Source: a phage. Taken from it: DNA of 64,000 nucleotides. Under the pieces are notes generated by a model. It did no database searches. It saw only the letters and a program-made list of their open reading frames with translations, and had not been told where the DNA came from. This document shows, piece after piece, positions 30,063 through 39,301 of the stretch (the stretch's first letter is position 1; every line of letters begins with the position of its first letter). The position numbers and the translations under genes are program-made. The stretch lies in the sequence record PQ478073.1; one strand, given 5' to 3'.

Positions 30063-30758
30063 ATGGTTGAACAATTCATGTTTGGTGGTTATGCTAATGG
30101 CGAAGTACGTAACATTTCTATTCCTTACGTAGTTGAGAAAGTTAATGGTTCAGAACGTACATATGATCTAGCATCTCGTATGATGCAAGACCGTATCATT
30201 TTCCTTGATACTGATTTCAATGATCAAATGGCACATATCATCAAACAACAATTGGTGTGGTTAGACTCACAAGGTGATTCCCCTATTACATTCTACATTA
30301 GTTCACCTGGTGGTTCAGTACACGCAGGTTTGGGTATTGCAGACGTTGCTAAGTCTTGTATTTCCCCAATCCGCACTGTAGTTATGGGTTATGCGGCATC
30401 AATGGGTTGCTATACACAATCTGTTATTGGAACTAAAGGTTTCCGTTTAGGTGGTAAACGCTCATACTTCATGTGTCACCAAGTAAGTTCTGGTACACAA
30501 GGTCTAATTACAGACCAGAAGATTTCCCTACAACATTCTGATGCACTGAATACATTGTTGACCAAAGAAATTGCAGAAGCAGTAGGCGTATCACATGAAC
30601 AATTACTAAAAGATGCTGACCGCGATTTGTGGTTAAATGCAGAAGAAGCACTTGAATATGGTGAACATGGTTTCATTGATGGTATTATTCTTGGACCGCG
30701 TAACGAAGAAGGCAAGTACTTAGTTAAGCGTCGCGGCGGTGTGGAAGAGTGGGTGTAA
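30063..30758 (+). CDS. ClpP-family serine protease
   Basis: SSPGGSV, GYAASMG (Ser), CHQ (His) pattern typical of ClpP. Confidence 0.8.
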   Translation: MVEQFMFGGYANGEVRNISIPYVVEKVNGSERTYDLASRMMQDRIIFLDTDFNDQMAHIIKQQLVWLDSQGDSPITFYISSPGGSVHAGLGIADVAKSCISPIRTVVMGYAASMGCYTQSVIGTKGFRLGGKRSYFMCHQVSSGTQGLITDQKISLQHSDALNTLLTKEIAEAVGVSHEQLLKDADRDLWLNAEEALEYGEHGFIDGIILGPRNEEGKYLVKRRGGVEEWV

Positions 30759-32714: not shown

Positions 32715-33150
32715 GGAAAGTAAATGTATTTCACAAAAAGTTGGTTGTGTTATTGTTAAAAATAATAGAGTATTGAGTACTGGATACAATGGAACGCCAT
32801 CTAAGCAGCCAAACTGTTGTGATGTAAATCAACATTTAGTGAACGATGGTCGTTTTCAAGACTGGGTTGATGATGCAGCAAAACATGAACATCATGAGTG
32901 GAGTAATATTCATGAGATCCATGCAGAGATGAACGCTTTACTGTATAGTTCTCCTACTGAACGCCAAGGAGCAACTCTTTACACAACTCTACAACCATGC
33001 TATACTTGTTCTAAGTTAATCGCAGGTAGTGGGATTACCCGTGTAATTTATCACAAAAGTTATCCACGAACACCACCTGAAGCGATTAAAGTACTGGAAG
33101 ATGCTGGGATTATTGTTAACTGCATTTATGACAAGGGTATGAATCAATGA
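32671..33150 (+). CDS. cd: dCMP deaminase
   Basis: zinc-binding HAEMNAL ... PCYTCSKLI; GGAG RBS before ATG at 32671. Confidence 0.8.
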   Translation: MKHTTWLKIAEVVAEESKCISQKVGCVIVKNNRVLSTGYNGTPSKQPNCCDVNQHLVNDGRFQDWVDDAAKHEHHEWSNIHEIHAEMNALLYSSPTERQGATLYTTLQPCYTCSKLIAGSGITRVIYHKSYPRTPPEAIKVLEDAGIIVNCIYDKGMNQ

Positions 33151-33401
33151 CATTTATGATTGTTGGATTACTATCAATATTAGTATTATTTTTTATAACA
33201 GTAATGTTTGTTATTGATGATAATGACATTTCTCAACGAAACTATGAAGTGCGTTTTTCTGCACAAAATAATAAGTACTATATTGTAAACTGTATACACC
33301 GTAGTGAGAAAAGGGTAACAAGTAGATTTGGATTTACCATTTATTATAAAGACCGAGTAGAAGCTGACATGATTTGTCAGAAGCTTAATACTGTAGAATA
33401 A
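33147..33401 (+). CDS. small membrane protein
   Basis: ORF track; hydrophobic N-terminus; ATGA coupling. Confidence 0.5.
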   Translation: MTFMIVGLLSILVLFFITVMFVIDDNDISQRNYEVRFSAQNNKYYIVNCIHRSEKRVTSRFGFTIYYKDRVEADMICQKLNTVE

Positions 33402-33429
33402 AAAAAGGAGCCAGAAGGCTCCTTTTTTG
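33399..33429. terminator. bidirectional rho-independent terminator between convergent genes
   Basis: A-run, stem GGAGCC/GGCTCC, T-run. Confidence 0.75.
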
Positions 33430-33807
33430 TTAACCAGGGATGTTACAATAATACAAATCCCAAGGGTGATATTTCATTTCTCCAGTACTCAATTTAATTT
33501 TATGAAACTGGAATGATTCGGCAAATGCACTATCATCAATCTTAATACAAAAAGTATTTTTTGCTAAAGTTGGTGCAATCTCTAGTGCAGTTTTAGTTGC
33601 ATCTAATCTGATTTTATCTTTATCAAAACTTGTTATAGTTACAAAACGATAAACATTAAAATCAGTGTCGATAAGATCGTAAACACAACTAGAACGTTGA
33701 TTAAAGATGTTCAAGTTATATTTCAATTCACCGTTTATATTAGCGGCGGTTACACAAAAGCCGCCGATATTGAATGGTAATTTACCTTGTGCTGCTATAG
33801 CTTTCAT
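33430..33807 (-). CDS. hypothetical protein (125 aa), the only clear reverse-strand gene
   Basis: ORF track; AGAGGA RBS on - strand; N-terminus GKLPFNIGGF. Confidence 0.65.
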   Translation of the reverse strand: MKAIAAQGKLPFNIGGFCVTAANINGELKYNLNIFNQRSSCVYDLIDTDFNVYRFVTITSFDKDKIRLDATKTALEIAPTLAKNTFCIKIDDSAFAESFQFHKIKLSTGEMKYHPWDLYYCNIPG

Positions 33808-33935
33808 ATTTTATTTCCTCTTATTAATAAACAACTACTTTTACAGATTGTTGTACCTTTTATATTTACACCGTCAACTAAATATCCACCTAAAGTGAAT
33901 GGAAATTGGTCTTGTCCTGCGATTGGTTCCCCCAT
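33804..33935 (-). CDS. short ORF (43 aa) sharing the N-terminal motif of the downstream - strand gene
   Basis: hand-read MGEPIAGQDQFPFTLGGYLVDGVNIKG...; AGGAG RBS; stop overlaps next start (ATGA). Confidence 0.4.
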   Translation of the reverse strand: MGEPIAGQDQFPFTLGGYLVDGVNIKGTTICKSSCLLIRGNKI

Positions 33936-33960
33936 TAAGGGCACTCCTTATAAAAAAGCT

Positions 33961-33989
33961 TTACATTTGGTATGGGTTTGTGATAGAAT
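33961..33989 (+). promoter_or_regulatory. sigma70-like promoter TTACAT-17-TAGAAT
   Basis: about 130 nt upstream of gene at 34117. Confidence 0.4.
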
Positions 33990-34116
33990 CTTCACAGTGA
34001 TTGTACTAAGGGGATTATCAGATGAGGGAAATTTGAGTTAAGTACAGAAAAAGTTTGACTTAAGTGTTTAAGTACTATATTATTTATATCTTCCTAACCA
34101 AAATTAAGGATTTGTT

Positions 34117-34725
34117 ATGAAAAGACTATGGCTTGAGGTAGTACAAGCAGTAATGCTTCTGATGTTGATAAATTTTCCAGCCAGTGCTGGTGTTGAAAGT
34201 AAAAATGTGATAAAGTACAATCCTGAAACACGTAATGTATATTTCATCTCAGATATTACGGATGGGTCACTAAAGCGTATGATGGAGTTGTATGATAAAG
34301 AACACTATGATACCATTACCATCACATCGCCAGGTGGTGATTTTGATGCTGGGATTAAAATGGCAAACTTCGTTAGAGACAATGGTATAAATTTAATTGT
34401 TTCTAGGTATTGCAACTCAGCATGTACTGTGGTATTCTTCAGTGTAGCTTTTGAAAAGCGATACATGATAAATCGCTCAGTACTGGGACTTCATAACATT
34501 TCTATTAAAAGTAATGTTAAAGACGGTGATAATTCTTTTGTATCAGTTAGGCAGCTATCAACTTTTACTGAAGAAATGGCAACTAAAGTAGGTTTTCTAT
34601 TTACACTATATTCTGCAAATGGAATTCCACCAGACGTTCTATATAAAGTTAGCCGTTCGCGTGGTGAAGATGTTGTAATATTAACAAAACCAGAACTGGT
34701 TTTTTACGGTTCAGTCAAACAATAA
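34117..34725 (+). CDS. signal-peptide ClpP-fold serine protease-like protein
   Basis: N-terminal signal-like segment; ITITSPGGDFDAG and NSAC/GLHN resemble ClpP core. Confidence 0.55.
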   Translation: MKRLWLEVVQAVMLLMLINFPASAGVESKNVIKYNPETRNVYFISDITDGSLKRMMELYDKEHYDTITITSPGGDFDAGIKMANFVRDNGINLIVSRYCNSACTVVFFSVAFEKRYMINRSVLGLHNISIKSNVKDGDNSFVSVRQLSTFTEEMATKVGFLFTLYSANGIPPDVLYKVSRSRGEDVVILTKPELVFYGSVKQ

Positions 34726-34795
34726 AAATAATTAAAATAACAGGATGATTATGATGTACTTCCTTTGTTATTAATTATATTGAGATTATATAACT

Positions 34796-35056
34796 ATGAC
34801 AAACATCCAAAATTTGACATCTATTATTTTTTATGCTACAGTAGTGATGTATATTACTGTACTTTTCCTAACAGTTTTCATTTACAAAGATTACAAAAAT
34901 GGCTTTATTGATAACACAACAATGAAGTTCAATTCAAAGTTTGAAGCAATAATTTATTATGTTCTGGCAACATCATATTTGGTGTGTCTAATGTTATTAG
35001 GTACATTGATTTATATTTTATATACAACTTTATTTGCAATTGGAGCTATTTTATGA
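34796..35056 (+). CDS. small membrane protein
   Basis: ORF track; two hydrophobic segments. Confidence 0.5.
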   Translation: MTNIQNLTSIIFYATVVMYITVLFLTVFIYKDYKNGFIDNTTMKFNSKFEAIIYYVLATSYLVCLMLLGTLIYILYTTLFAIGAIL

Positions 35057-35649
35057 CATGTATCATTGCACACACTGATGGTGTAACTTCTTTTATTGCA
35101 GGGGACAAACTGGGAAGTAACGGGTTCACAAAGTCCGTTCAAACTGAGCCTAAAGTATTTGAGAAAGAATTCATTAAAATCAATGATGATGCTGGTTTGA
35201 CCCGTACAAAAGAAATTATGGCGATTGGTTACACCACATCATTCCGTATGGGTCAACTTCTTACTTACAGTTTGAATCTACCACAGCAAGATGCAAATGA
35301 GACGTTTCCACAGTACTTAGTACTGAAAGTTATTCCTATTATTCGTCAAATGTTCAAAGAGGAATGGGGTTCTCGTGATCCTTCACAAGAAGTAGGTGGT
35401 GGACAGTTCATCATTCTTCACAATCATACAATTTATGAAGTTCAAGAAGATTTTTCAGTTCTTCAACCGAAAACACGAATCACCGCCGTAGGTAGCGGAA
35501 CATATCATGCTATTGCAGCAATGCAAGCATATATTGAAGTTGAAAATGAATCAAAAGTGCCACTACATGAACGCATCAAATCAATTTTTAAAATTGTCAG
35601 TGATAATGTAACTAGTGTAAGTGCCGAGTTTGATGTTTTAAAGTATTAA
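35053..35649 (+). CDS. HslV / proteasome beta-subunit-like hydrolase
   Basis: Thr after initiator Met; IAGDKLGSNG and TAVGSGTYHAIAA parallel HslV; GGAG RBS before ATG at 35053. Confidence 0.6.
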   Translation: MTCIIAHTDGVTSFIAGDKLGSNGFTKSVQTEPKVFEKEFIKINDDAGLTRTKEIMAIGYTTSFRMGQLLTYSLNLPQQDANETFPQYLVLKVIPIIRQMFKEEWGSRDPSQEVGGGQFIILHNHTIYEVQEDFSVLQPKTRITAVGSGTYHAIAAMQAYIEVENESKVPLHERIKSIFKIVSDNVTSVSAEFDVLKY

Positions 35650-35667
35650 AATTATAAGAGAGAATAG

Positions 35668-35862
35668 ATGATGGCATACACAATTTATGAATGGGTTTTG
35701 AGTTTTTTTATAGTTTTTTCTATTGTTGTAATTTATAACAATGCTAAATGCTTATACAGGGACTTGAAATCCAATGGTTATCACAAAGATAATAATTTTA
35801 TGTATGCCTATCATATTGGAATAATTCTGTTATTATCAATATATTTAATTGGTTTTTCATAA
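35668..35862 (+). CDS. small membrane protein
   Basis: ORF track; hydrophobic. Confidence 0.45.
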   Translation: MMAYTIYEWVLSFFIVFSIVVIYNNAKCLYRDLKSNGYHKDNNFMYAYHIGIILLLSIYLIGFS

Positions 35863-35871
35863 GGATTGAAT

Positions 35872-36624
35872 ATGATATCAGAAAAATTTATAAGTAATGA
35901 AGGTAAAAAAAGATTACTGATTATATCTGGTGCAGGACTTTCTGTTGAAAGTGGTATGGAACCTTTTCGATTTGATGATGGTTTGTGGGATACATTTAAA
36001 ATCAATGATGTATGTAACATTGCTAGTTTAACTACGAAATATCACGTTGTTCATTCCTTCTATAATACATTACGTGTAAAATTGGGACAATGCGAACCCA
36101 ATGCAATGCATTATTTTATAAAATCGTTAGAAGATCAATATGGTGATTGCTTCCTTCATATGACTTCTAACATGGATGATCTTTATACTCGTATCGGTGG
36201 TCATGAGCTTAAACTTCATGGAAACTTGTGCGAAGTTATTGAAAATTATAGTATCAATTCCGATGATTATAATGTTATTAACTGCGGATACGAACCATAC
36301 ATACCAAAACATGATGTTTTTGCTAAACCAAATGTAGTAATGATTGGAGAATATCATCGTTATGTTGATGGTATTCGCTTACCAATTTACGAAGAACGAA
36401 ATAATGTGTTGAAATCTCTTAATGAAAATGATACAGTTATTGTAATTGGTAGTAGCGATACAGTACTAGTATGGTCGAGATTAGCAGCAGCATTACCATG
36501 TTATAGTGTTAATGTTAACATTCGTAAAAATGATAATGATTTTTTGTTTAATGAAAAAGTTATCAAGCCAGCAACCAAAGCAATACCACATCTAGAGACT
36601 ATAATTAAGGAACGTATGAAATGA
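35872..36624 (+). CDS. Sir2-family (sirtuin-like) NAD-dependent enzyme
   Basis: GAGLSVESGMEPFR NAD-binding motif; HG catalytic pair; GSS near C-terminus; AAGGA RBS. Confidence 0.75.
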   Translation: MISEKFISNEGKKRLLIISGAGLSVESGMEPFRFDDGLWDTFKINDVCNIASLTTKYHVVHSFYNTLRVKLGQCEPNAMHYFIKSLEDQYGDCFLHMTSNMDDLYTRIGGHELKLHGNLCEVIENYSINSDDYNVINCGYEPYIPKHDVFAKPNVVMIGEYHRYVDGIRLPIYEERNNVLKSLNENDTVIVIGSSDTVLVWSRLAAALPCYSVNVNIRKNDNDFLFNEKVIKPATKAIPHLETIIKERMK

Positions 36625-37172
36625 GTGTTAAAGAAGTTCCCTTTGGTGAATATGGCTCACGTGCAAATTTTGTATTTTGTTATTTCTTTGCAAGAAAATG
36701 TAACCCTTACAAAAACTATGAGTTGAATGATATACCAGAAGTAAATTTAGTTTTACTACAATTACGATGGGATGGTCTTCTTGGTGGATGTGGTGGAACC
36801 GTAGAAAGTACTGATATCTCACTAGAAGATGCGTTGCGTCGTGAAGTTCAAGAAGAAATGGATTACAATATTTTTGTTTCCCATCTTCGACCACTCAAAA
36901 CTTTTGAAATTTACCCAGGTGCAAACAGTCATAGTTTTAGCTATGAAGTAAGCTATGACGAGTTGAAACACATTAGAGATGGATACACTAATGCTAAACA
37001 TGCGAGTGCTGAAGTTGCTGGTGTAAATTTATGTCATATTTCTCGTTATTCTAAGGGACAAAATCGAGAAGCGGGATATAATAATCTTATGACACAGAAC
37101 TTCATTGGTACAGCAAAACAAGAATTGGAGTATCTGGTTCAAAAAGAAAACTTACTAATTAGTTATCTATAG
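36621..37172 (+). CDS. Nudix hydrolase
   Basis: Nudix box GGCGGTVESTDISLEDALRREVQEE; ATGA coupling to Sir2 gene. Confidence 0.7.
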   Translation: MSVKEVPFGEYGSRANFVFCYFFARKCNPYKNYELNDIPEVNLVLLQLRWDGLLGGCGGTVESTDISLEDALRREVQEEMDYNIFVSHLRPLKTFEIYPGANSHSFSYEVSYDELKHIRDGYTNAKHASAEVAGVNLCHISRYSKGQNREAGYNNLMTQNFIGTAKQELEYLVQKENLLISYL

Positions 37173-37181
37173 GAGTTTAAC

Positions 37182-37502
37182 ATGTCTTACGCAATGTTTT
37201 TGGATGATATTCGTGATGCAAATCTATATTATCCAAACCAAGATATGGTGGTATGTCGTGACTTTAAAAGTGCATGTGAATATGTTATTGAAAATGGAAT
37301 TCCAGCATTTGTATCATTCGACCATGACTTGGGTGATGTGAGCGAAGACGAAAAGACTGGATATTCTTTTGCTAAGTTTCTTATTGATTATATGTTTGAT
37401 AATAATATTAAAGAACCGTTTGAGTACTTTGTTCACAGTAGTAATCCTGTTGGTAAAATTAATATTGAAACATACTTAAACAATGGATTTAACGCATTAT
37501 GA
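37182..37502 (+). CDS. hypothetical protein
   Basis: ORF track; GGAG RBS. Confidence 0.55.
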   Translation: MSYAMFLDDIRDANLYYPNQDMVVCRDFKSACEYVIENGIPAFVSFDHDLGDVSEDEKTGYSFAKFLIDYMFDNNIKEPFEYFVHSSNPVGKINIETYLNNGFNAL

Positions 37503-37801
37503 TTCAAACACACATCAAAAGTCTTATTTGTACTGTTCTGTTAGGTGCAGGAGTTCTTTGGTTCGGACAGTATCACGAGAACACTAAGCGTACCAACATT
37601 CACTACAATACCGCAGAAGTTGTTAGTTTAGGACAATGTAGCGAGTCCAAATGTTCATTCATGTATAAAACCCAAAGTGGTGAAGTACGTAATGGACTAT
37701 CAAGAGAACCAGTTTCAATTGGTCAACTTGTTTACCAGGAGTGCTGGGAAGAAAAGGTTCGAGGTTCACGTTGCTATGTTGAATACGAACCAAATATGTA
37801 A
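37499..37801 (+). CDS. membrane-anchored hypothetical protein
   Basis: ORF track; N-terminal hydrophobic segment. Confidence 0.5.
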   Translation: MIQTHIKSLICTVLLGAGVLWFGQYHENTKRTNIHYNTAEVVSLGQCSESKCSFMYKTQSGEVRNGLSREPVSIGQLVYQECWEEKVRGSRCYVEYEPNM

Positions 37802-37861
37802 TAATCCGAGTCAATAACATTAGTCGAGTACAAGGATGTACTCATAACTCAAGGATGTTTT

Positions 37862-39301
37862 ATGAAAAAATATACAATTGACACAAACGTACTACTATCT
37901 GACCCTAATGCATCTATTGCTTTTGATGGTGCTGCAATCATTCTACCATTTACAGTACTGGAAGAATTAGATTCGATTAAGAGTCGTAATGTAGATGTTT
38001 CACGCGATGCTCGTGTTGCTATTCGTAACATTGAAGCAATTATTGCAGATGCATCACATGACGAGATTAGTAGTACTGGTGTTAATATTGCTGATGTTCA
38101 TACCAATATGAATCCTGATAGCAAATTGTTTGTTATTACAAACGAAGAAGCTGAGGCACTAATTCGTACTAAAGGTACAGAAGAGAAAGTTCAAACCCTT
38201 CTCAAAAGTACTGTACCTGATGATAAAATCATTCTGGTAGCTTTAGCAACAGAATCAGTACTGGTAACTCGTGATATCAACATGCGTATCAAAGCACTAA
38301 GTTATGGTGTCGAGGTACAAGATTATCGCCATGATATTGTTATTGGTGATAGTGATTTGATTCACATTGGTCAACACCATCTGGAAATCAATTTTTGGGA
38401 AGTATACAGCAACTTAACCAATACTAATATTCAATCCGAACAAGTTGGTCGTCGTTTGTATCATTACATTTCTAAAAGCTTGATTGAACATCTGCTTCCA
38501 CAAAATCTATGCATCGGTGATTATCTATATGATGATGCTGACGTATTATTTGTGTACGAAGGACAATCAGCAATTGAGGAAGATGATGGAACACTAACAC
38601 CAGAAGATATTTTGGTATTCCAAGACATTGGACAATCAGTGGCTTTACGTGCTAAAGTATGGGATATTAAAGCAAAGAATATCCAACAAGCACTCGCCAT
38701 CAACAGTATTCTCGATCCTGATGTACATCTAACAGTACTACTAGGTTCTGCTGGTACTGGTAAAACACTAATTACAATTGCTACTGCATTAGAATTAGTA
38801 CTGGAAAAACGTAAATACGACCGAATCATCTTCTCTAAAACTCAAGACTCACAGTTTGAAGATATTGGTTTCTTGCCAGGTTCAGAAGCAGAAAAAGTGA
38901 TTCCATTCTGTGGAGCCGCGATTGATGCGTTAGAGTTTCTTCATAAAGATGATGCAAACCCACAAGGTAGTATTGAAGAGATTATGAAACGTAATGTTAT
39001 TCAATTTAAAGCACTAAACTTTGTACGTGGACGTTCATTCACCAACACTATTCTAGTAGTTGATGAATTCCAAAACATTACACCTGCACAAGCAAAAACC
39101 ATCTTGACACGAGCAGGGTTAAACTGTAAAGTAGTAATTATGGGTAACTTGAGTCAGATTGACAGTAAGTTTATTAGTCCTGTTAACAGTGGTTTGACAT
39201 ATGTAACTGAGAAGTTTAAAGACTGGGCAGGTTGTCGTGTCATCGAACTAGAAGGTGTTGTTCGTTCACCACTGGCTGAATTTGCTGAAGAAAATATGTA
39301 A
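37862..39301 (+). CDS. phoH: PhoH-family ATPase with N-terminal PIN domain
   Basis: Walker A LLGSAGTGKT; PIN-like acidic N-terminus (DTN ... EELD). Confidence 0.85.
   Translation: MKKYTIDTNVLLSDPNASIAFDGAAIILPFTVLEELDSIKSRNVDVSRDARVAIRNIEAIIADASHDEISSTGVNIADVHTNMNPDSKLFVITNEEAEALIRTKGTEEKVQTLLKSTVPDDKIILVALATESVLVTRDINMRIKALSYGVEVQDYRHDIVIGDSDLIHIGQHHLEINFWEVYSNLTNTNIQSEQVGRRLYHYISKSLIEHLLPQNLCIGDYLYDDADVLFVYEGQSAIEEDDGTLTPEDILVFQDIGQSVALRAKVWDIKAKNIQQALAINSILDPDVHLTVLLGSAGTGKTLITIATALELVLEKRKYDRIIFSKTQDSQFEDIGFLPGSEAEKVIPFCGAAIDALEFLHKDDANPQGSIEEIMKRNVIQFKALNFVRGRSFTNTILVVDEFQNITPAQAKTILTRAGLNCKVVIMGNLSQIDSKFISPVNSGLTYVTEKFKDWAGCRVIELEGVVRSPLAEFAEENM

Follow-up and report, generated by a model that had tools for sequence, protein, structure and literature searches.

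Our analysis indicates that gene 475 (gp475) on a 64,000 nt stretch of phage DNA (record PQ478073.1; the whole stretch is referred to as the window) encodes a homologue of the proteasome beta/HslV superfamily. We consider it rather likely that the protein is a stand-alone N-terminal nucleophile (Ntn) threonine peptidase, which belongs to a phage-spread family without propeptide and would be activated by removal of its initiator methionine. Bases 33000-38000 of the window are 99.5% identical to Escherichia phage 121Q (KM507819 / NC_025447), a Rak2-like jumbo myovirus (Asteriusvirus) of 348.5 kb; the window represents either this Escherichia jumbo phage itself or a relative of 99.5% identity. 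The open reading frame (ORF) at 35053-35649 on the plus strand is gene 475 of 121Q, with 100% identity to the 121Q record in a tblastn search, and its protein sequence is public as AIT14365.1. GenBank names it "protease" with the note "protease (ClpYQ-like)", and RefSeq uses "peptidase HslV family". The HslV-like reading of gp475 is thus already known and not new, because the 121Q record and PHROGs annotate an HslV-family peptidase, and phage-borne proteasome homologues were catalogued in 2021 by Fuchs, Alva and Lupas. The features that carry our reading are given below, with residue conservation counted here and throughout over 256 aligned relatives.

35042-35045, plus strand: GGAG Shine-Dalgarno motif, 7 nt 5' of the ATG
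35053-35649, plus strand: gp475 coding sequence, predicted proteasome/HslV-like Ntn threonine hydrolase, 198 aa, soluble
35056-35058, plus strand: Thr2 codon, predicted N-terminal nucleophile (Thr1 after Met removal), aligned on HslV Thr1; Thr in 255/256
35104-35106, plus strand: Asp18 codon, corresponding to Asp17 of HslV/proteasome; 256/256
35152-35154, plus strand: Lys34 codon, corresponding to Lys33 of HslV/proteasome; 256/256
35227-35262, plus strand: hallmark motif G-Y-T-T-S-F-R-M-G-Q-L-L, residues 59-70, i.e. Gly59 and then the start of helix H1
35491-35499, plus strand: G-S-G loop, Gly147-Ser148-Gly149, corresponding to the HslV GSGG / proteasome Gly128-Ser129-Gly130 loop

A preliminary description of this DNA, made from the sequence alone, had taken the gene for a phage-encoded HslV or proteasome-like hydrolase with segments that parallel HslV. 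Profile searches together with AlphaFold2 and Foldseek bear this out, and the likeness to HslV in three profile comparisons is far beyond chance. The PHROG 1040 model ("peptidase HslV family") matched gp475 with E=1e-23 and 85.3 bits. A profile of 54 family sequences searched against the PDB aligned with HslV chains over the full length (E=1.5e-9 to 2e-7) and placed Thr2 on HslV Thr1, while proteasome beta subunits followed at about 1e-5 to 1e-3 and the proteasome homologue BPH at 1e-4. In hhalign the gp475 family matched E. coli HslV with a probability of 96.8% and E=2e-10, and M1T2, D18 and K34 of gp475 fell without gaps on M1T2, D18 and K34 of the HslV precursor (numbering including Met). 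Profile methods were needed, because single-sequence searches were almost blind: phmmer against the PDB gave E~0.6 to HslV, mixed with recoverin, and the single-sequence search of Pfam returned no match, the Proteasome family included.

The AlphaFold2 model of gp475 reached a pLDDT of 92.9 and a pTM of 0.89. Its elements run in the order S1-S4, H1, H2, strands, H3, H4 and a last strand, which is that of a proteasome-type subunit with both helix pairs, and helix H2 lies at residues 85-104. With this model Foldseek ranked HslV and BPH on top (E~1e-9). The structure prediction and comparison with HslV that had been proposed as a check hence returned the four-layer alpha-beta-beta-alpha Ntn-hydrolase fold of the proteasome beta/HslV superfamily. 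Two further regions were located from the model, the first of them also from residue spacing.

35164-35217, plus strand: S3/S4 beta-hairpin extension of about 15 residues (~38-55), specific to one clade
35365-35406, plus strand: loop joining H2 and the strand that follows it, residues ~105-118 ("pore loop" position), where alone the model has low confidence

Judged by its residues, the proteasome-type N-terminal-threonine active site of gp475 is intact. A Thr placed to become the nucleophilic first mature residue, the Asp17/Lys33 register and a Gly47-type glycine, which characterize T1-type Ntn threonine hydrolases (MEROPS), were all found, with the loop Ser present in 121/256. Gly59 is conserved in 254/256 relatives, and from its position between strand and helix it is likely the oxyanion-hole glycine equivalent to Gly47. 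The motif that it opens reads G-[YF]-T-[TS]-S-F-R-M-G-Q-L-L across the family, with T61, S63, R65 and Q68 each in at least 250/256, and GYTTSFRMGQLL is unusually strongly conserved among the relatives. In the GSG loop, G147 (256/256) and G149 (253/256) flank a variable position 148 (Ser in 121, Cys in 117 and Ala in 11). The nucleophile is followed by Cys3 (codon 35059-35061), a position that is Cys in 244/256 relatives and Ala in T5-like phages; at this mature position 2, Thr is found in HslV and in active 20S beta subunits.

The protein of 198 residues begins MTCIIAHTDG, and no transmembrane (TM) segment was predicted in it. An in-frame GTG is located 23 codons upstream of the ATG; a start at this codon, which would add a 23-residue propeptide-like extension, was rejected since it occurs in 121Q-like sequence alone. 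We compared the start in six other phages, namely Turkey5, EJP2, Munch, the T5-like fuchur, Aeromonas 2L372D and Geobacillus E3. In all six an in-frame stop is found 0-11 codons 5' of the Met-Thr (or Leu-start-Thr) start, no alternative start lies between the two, and an equivalent AGGA/GGAG motif is present. At the level of sequence the Met-Thr start of gp475 is therefore verified, and 117 of the 120 best homologues also begin MTC. The preliminary description had proposed this start and named its verification as a check on the catalytic threonine, and the N-terminal Thr survives that check. Among Rak2-like orthologues dN/dS was 0.11-0.22 with saturated synonymous sites, which argues for a real gene under purifying selection.

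An exhaustive profile search detected 9,239 representatives of clusters at 50% identity with E<=1e-3, of which 2,735 reach E<=1e-30. Nearly all of the best 150 representatives align from their own residue 1, and the family thus appears to lack a propeptide. C-terminally extended members of 225-344 aa exist, with no recognisable extra domain in the extension, and no PADLOC defence-system match was obtained. The family is carried by 197 of 50,697 phage records, mostly T5-like Epseptimavirus and Rak2-like jumbo phages, with further members in Vibrio, Aeromonas, Pseudoalteromonas, Geobacillus and Moorella phages. The earlier statement that such proteases are uncommon in phage genomes is hence valid in relative terms only, as the family has a PHROG of its own. 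A scan of bacteria with the motif of residues 59-70, one genome per species, identified 396 genomes, including many Azospirillum, Polyangiaceae/Myxococcota, Patescibacteria, Paenibacillus/Oceanobacillus, Dehalococcoidia and an Actinoplanes metagenome-assembled genome (MAG). Public names of these proteins vary between "hypothetical protein", "ATP-dependent protease HslVU peptidase subunit", "Ntn hydrolase family protein" and "Proteasome subunit".

Fuchs, Alva and Lupas described three group I proteasome homologues that are present in phages, PPH, AAH and CPH, and reported AAH to be most abundant in Actinobacteria (PMC8665760). By size, architecture and taxonomic distribution the gp475 family is most probably the AAH group. 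Like AAH it is compact (~180-200 aa) with helices H1-H4, has neither a propeptide nor a C-terminal S12/H5, and shows kinship to HslV and BPH. The distribution is AAH-like as well, AAH being described from phages, alpha-proteobacteria, Actinobacteria, Firmicutes, Bacteroidetes and others: the gp475 family occurs in many phages and, apparently by way of them, in Firmicutes and other bacteria, while alpha-proteobacteria (Azospirillum, Devosia, Gluconacetobacter) and the Actinoplanes MAG carry it on the chromosome. The one exception to the compact group I architecture is restricted to the Rak2-like clade, where 121Q and its relatives add the S3/S4 extension of ~15 residues, whereas group I homologues were described as being without insertions (PMC8665760).

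PPH shares with gp475 its occurrence in phages, the missing propeptide and the group I assignment. However, PPH has ~140 residues and no H2 (PMC8665760), and a PPH identity of gp475 was ruled out by its length of 198 residues and the clear H2 at 85-104 in the model. We also observed two different proteasome-like genes side by side in Aeromonas phage 2L372D (L010, 3501-4052 and 4070-4954). The second encodes a PPH/RPC-like protein of 294 aa that starts VTTIAY, matches Pfam Proteasome with 2e-5 and has a long acidic C-terminal extension. Because this gene adjoins a member of the gp475 family, the family can be regarded as distinct from PPH. The pair itself may represent a two-component phage proteasome-like system.

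The relation to HslV (ClpQ) itself is a matter of superfamily homology and, on our comparisons, not of orthology. gp475 shares with HslV the Thr1/Asp17/Lys33 register and the GSG loop. E. coli HslV is likewise made as a Met-Thr precursor, starting (M)TTIV, that is matured by Met removal, and by analogy gp475 may mature in the same way. HslV proper is a dodecamer of two hexameric rings. Against orthology, gp475 is only 15-20% identical to HslV, has Cys at mature position 2 and its own H1 motif, and remains more than 100 bits below the cut-offs of the NCBIfam HslV equivalogs (PRK05456 / TIGR03692), with 19.2 bits against 137 and 18.3 bits against 157.75. True HslV was found in 14 records of the phage collection, mostly unannotated contigs that also carry HslU, and these are likely host contamination.

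HslV also differs from gp475 in that no hslU adjoins the phage gene or was found elsewhere in the phage sequence searched. An HslU-like partner had been suggested as a target of search in phage or host. In the phage, E. coli HslU was used as tblastn query on the 121Q record (minus its last 532 bases) plus the window, and none was found; the sole match covered 46 residues in the Walker region of the ClpA-like gp581. We also considered the HslU-sized "ATPase" gp563 (441 aa) and rejected it, as it has a marginal generic AAA match and no similarity to HslU. Across all phage records, the 40 best matches to E. coli HslU contained HslU-like genes only from Erwinia/Salmonella jumbo phages and contaminating bacterial contigs. 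"HslV without HslU" has been noted before in a Salmonella jumbo phage genome paper (PMC7823757).

The E. coli host has an hslVU locus, and gp475 rings might therefore dock on host HslU or mix with host HslV and divert ATP-dependent degradation towards targets from which the phage profits, an explanation that we consider unlikely. Among solved structures HslV gives the best match by sequence, and the hosts possess an HslU that the phage lacks; it is present in E. coli, Salmonella, Vibrio, Aeromonas and Bacillus-type hosts alike. The motif of residues 59-70, the most conserved non-catalytic part of the family, maps on the HslV helix bearing Phe54 and Phe57, which together with Gln114 form the pocket for the HslU C-terminal tail (PMC6429459). 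In the hhalign register, which cannot be relied on for the middle of the protein, the near-invariant Phe64 is the counterpart of Phe54 and Gln138 that of Gln114, but Phe57 falls on the near-invariant Gly67. Likewise the basic pore residues of HslV, Arg86, Arg89 and Lys90 (PMC5777263), map to Glu104, Ser107 and Arg108 at the start of the low-confidence loop, which are not all basic. This uncertain mapping of pocket and pore appears to lend HslU docking no positive support. The distance of the family to the HslV equivalog models speaks against docking as well. Actinobacteria as a rule lack HslUV, and it is in these bacteria that AAH was reported to be most abundant; Patescibacteria and the Actinoplanes MAG carry the family too. 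Furthermore, BPH is a descendant of HslV that has lost HslU binding (PMC5777263).

Structurally gp475 is as close to BPH (PDB 5ovs/5ovt/5ovu) as to HslV, and BPH shares with it the missing propeptide and is not known to have a partner unfoldase (PMC5777263). The two differ in that BPH is matched by sequence with E=1e-4 only and has as its hallmarks 7-fold rings and a pore loop that is long and highly acidic. The position of this loop has been recognized as significant (PMC5777263, PMC8665760); in gp475 its sequence EWGSRDPSQEVGGG is not acidic-rich, and the model has a pLDDT of 70-77 for residues 101-120. Standard assays revealed no peptidase activity of BPH, the closest solved relative that lacks a partner, and covalent binding of epoxomicin is all that was demonstrated (PMC5777263). 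Taken together with the non-conserved GSG serine, this could point to a catalytically silent scaffold or decoy that, for example, poisons host HslV rings. We regard such a role as highly improbable, since Thr1, Asp17 and Lys33 are kept in 255-256 of 256 relatives from very different hosts, which indicates selection on catalysis.

Several points weigh against a stand-alone threonine peptidase of the AAH type. The BPH precedent suggests by analogy that an intact active site does not guarantee a general peptidase. In proteasomes the GSG-loop serine supports catalysis, and half of the family carries Cys or Ala in its place. The AAH assignment was made by size, architecture and distribution and not via the reference WP_035979212, so that CPH (WP_008185288) is a formal alternative. 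Finally, no experimental study of the gp475 family or of phage proteasome homologues was found in the literature searched, and a comparative review of jumbo phages covers ClpP, ClpS and ClpA and not the gp475 gene (PMC7824862).

The S3/S4 hairpin insertion is specific to the Rak2-like clade and is the one local novelty of these proteins. The spacing between K34 and G59 is 24 residues in gp475 and 20-26 in 49 sequences of the Rak2-like clade, compared to 9 in 190/256 relatives, and the insertion was modelled as a long hairpin (E35-44/E50-60) with a pLDDT of 94-98. In connectase, which uses the proteasome fold as a sequence-specific ligase, the substrate-selecting element occupies exactly this S3/S4 site (PMC8665760). 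gp475 might accordingly be non-degradative and act on one defined peptide or small-molecule amide, whether as a specific processing enzyme, a connectase-like transpeptidase/ligase or an amidohydrolase, with its specificity given by the H1 motif and the clade-specific hairpin. The unusually strong conservation of GYTTSFRMGQLL would suit such a function, whereas the minimal 9-residue hairpin without insertion in 190/256 relatives argues against it, and overall we find it quite unlikely. We hold it to be about as doubtful, and slightly more speculative, that the H1 motif forms an activator pocket and the Rak2-clade hairpin gates the chamber. gp475 would then be a phage "mini-proteasome" that is switched on by a host factor (e.g. 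the C-terminal tail of host HslU) and selectively destroys host proteins such as stress or defence regulators.

The gene overlaps a small membrane protein gene and lies in a block with two genes of the ClpP fold, as the preliminary description had pointed out.

30063-30758, plus strand: gp464, ClpP homologue (Pfam CLP_protease E=4e-41; GYAASMG / MCHQ / DADR motifs for Ser/His/Asp), 4.3 kb upstream
34117-34725, plus strand: gp473, ClpP-fold protein with N-terminal hydrophobic helix according to AlphaFold and Foldseek; a neighbour, not a demonstrated partner
34796-35056, plus strand: gp474, two-TM ORF of 86 aa, whose stop overlaps the gp475 start (ATGA, 4 bases)
35668-35862, plus strand: downstream ORF with two TM-length segments

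The overlap with a small membrane protein gene was confirmed, as gp474 has two hydrophobic segments of TM length, and the ATGA arrangement makes translational coupling of gp474 and gp475 likely. Of the two ClpP-fold genes, gp464 is recognized by Pfam and gp473 by AlphaFold and Foldseek. By sequence gp473 is weak (Pfam E=0.007, NCBIfam E=2.8e-5, PDB profile to ClpP E=0.011-0.23), but its AlphaFold model (pLDDT 80.7) matched ClpP in Foldseek with E~2e-8 and TM-scores of 0.65-0.72. It has a disordered linker after the hydrophobic helix and an invariant Ser101 (CNSAC) and His126 (GLHN), and may be a membrane-anchored or exported ClpP-like protease. Its family is tiny, with 14 homologues that all belong to Rak2-like phages. 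The phage further encodes a separate Clp set consisting of the ClpP gp464, the ClpA-like gp581 (L008, 257-2545), a double-AAA+ protein with an IGM ClpP-docking loop, and the ClpS-like adaptor gp48 (L003, 34461-35006; Pfam ClpS 2e-5).

These surroundings raise the question whether gp475 works in a membrane-associated protease module with gp473, gp474, the ORF at 35668-35862 or the ClpA-like gp581. The ATGA overlap and the common orientation of gp473, gp474 and gp475, separated by no more than short gaps once the first intergenic region is passed, would be in agreement with such a module. So would Turkey5, which retains homologues of gp473 and gp474 (the latter with 43% identity) beside the gene, as well as the small two-TM ORFs flanking it in four Rak2-like phages and the membrane protein 5' of it in one T5-like phage. 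However, the membrane ORFs on its flanks show no homology from clade to clade, gp474 homologues are absent from the EJP2 and Munch loci, as are those of gp473, and gp473 has 14 homologues compared to thousands for gp475. gp581 is already accounted for, as its IGM loop is of the ClpP type and the phage has its own ClpP. The gene contexts in T5-like phages (nrdB-DHFR-thyA-membrane protein-[gene]-RNase H), Geobacillus E3 (topoisomerase-thyA-DHFR-hypothetical-[gene]) and Aeromonas phages have no common neighbour, and no conserved neighbour was found across the T5-like, Aeromonas, Geobacillus and Rak2-like phages. We therefore consider a joint module very improbable. Homologues of gp473 and gp474 accompany gp475 only in the closest clades, and because the ClpP-fold genes are not conserved neighbours in other phage groups, the "protease block" of the preliminary description is a local arrangement and not a conserved system, and does not count as evidence of a joint system. 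In 80 bacterial loci, recurrent neighbours could be traced to Azospirillum synteny or to spurious high-GC ORFs, and no Pfam domain among them was informative.

Some further observations concern the locus. Small two-TM ORFs lie on both sides of the HslV-like gene in 121Q, Turkey5 and EJP2 and only upstream in Munch; a "membrane protein" is also found 5' of the family gene in the T5-like fuchur, and between clades these ORFs are unrelated. Immediately downstream of gp475 (35866-39301, plus strand) follow genes for a Sir2-family protein (Pfam 3.7e-20), a Nudt16-like Nudix hydrolase (1.3e-18) and a PhoH-like protein of 479 aa (PIN-PhoH). A nicotinamide/nicotinate phosphoribosyltransferase (NAMPT) is encoded just 5' of the family gene in EJP2 and Munch (L093, 92-1564; L094, 285-1763). 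The Rak2-like locus is thus an NAD-linked gene neighbourhood. Nucleotide and NAD metabolism around the gene, i.e. thyA/DHFR in T5-like phages and Geobacillus E3 and NAMPT, Sir2 and Nudix in Rak2-like phages, might also be taken to favour the non-degradative enzyme discussed above, but no neighbour is kept across phage groups, and the metabolic context may only reflect placement in an early gene region. Outside the window, the 121Q record contains at 117-131 kb (L005, 17089-31255) about 14 tandem paralogues on the minus strand that are annotated as "regulator of chromosome condensation (RCC1-like)".

For the stand-alone threonine peptidase that we prefer, the following course can be proposed. 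gp475 would be translated from its Met-Thr start, coupled to the small membrane ORF upstream, and Met1 would be removed by the host methionine aminopeptidase. Threonine is a permissive second residue for Met removal, and E. coli HslV matures likewise. The free alpha-amino group and the hydroxyl of Thr1 would then, together with Asp17, Lys33, the Gly47 equivalent and the GSG loop, cleave peptide bonds. By analogy with BPH and HslV, the subunits would probably form stacked homo-oligomeric rings with the active sites inside and, with no dedicated unfoldase encoded by the phage, probably act on peptides or on unfolded proteins. Met removal, catalysis, ring assembly and ATP independence are thus what we infer for gp475, and by the same reasoning the enzyme may serve during infection to remodel or recycle proteins of the host or the phage.

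In cells, regulated proteolysis relies centrally on proteasome-type threonine proteases, and no biochemically characterised viral member was found in the literature searched. If gp475 were indeed a "mini-proteasome" switched on by a host factor, it would be the first functional viral proteasome-type protease and would represent a new mechanism of host takeover or anti-defence. Beyond this, interest remains in a large and perfectly conserved viral branch of the proteasome family that carries a clade-specific hairpin insertion. With its size, its perfect catalytic triad and its occurrence in well-studied and easily grown phages (T5-like, Rak2-like), the family offers a tractable system for phage proteasome-like enzymes.

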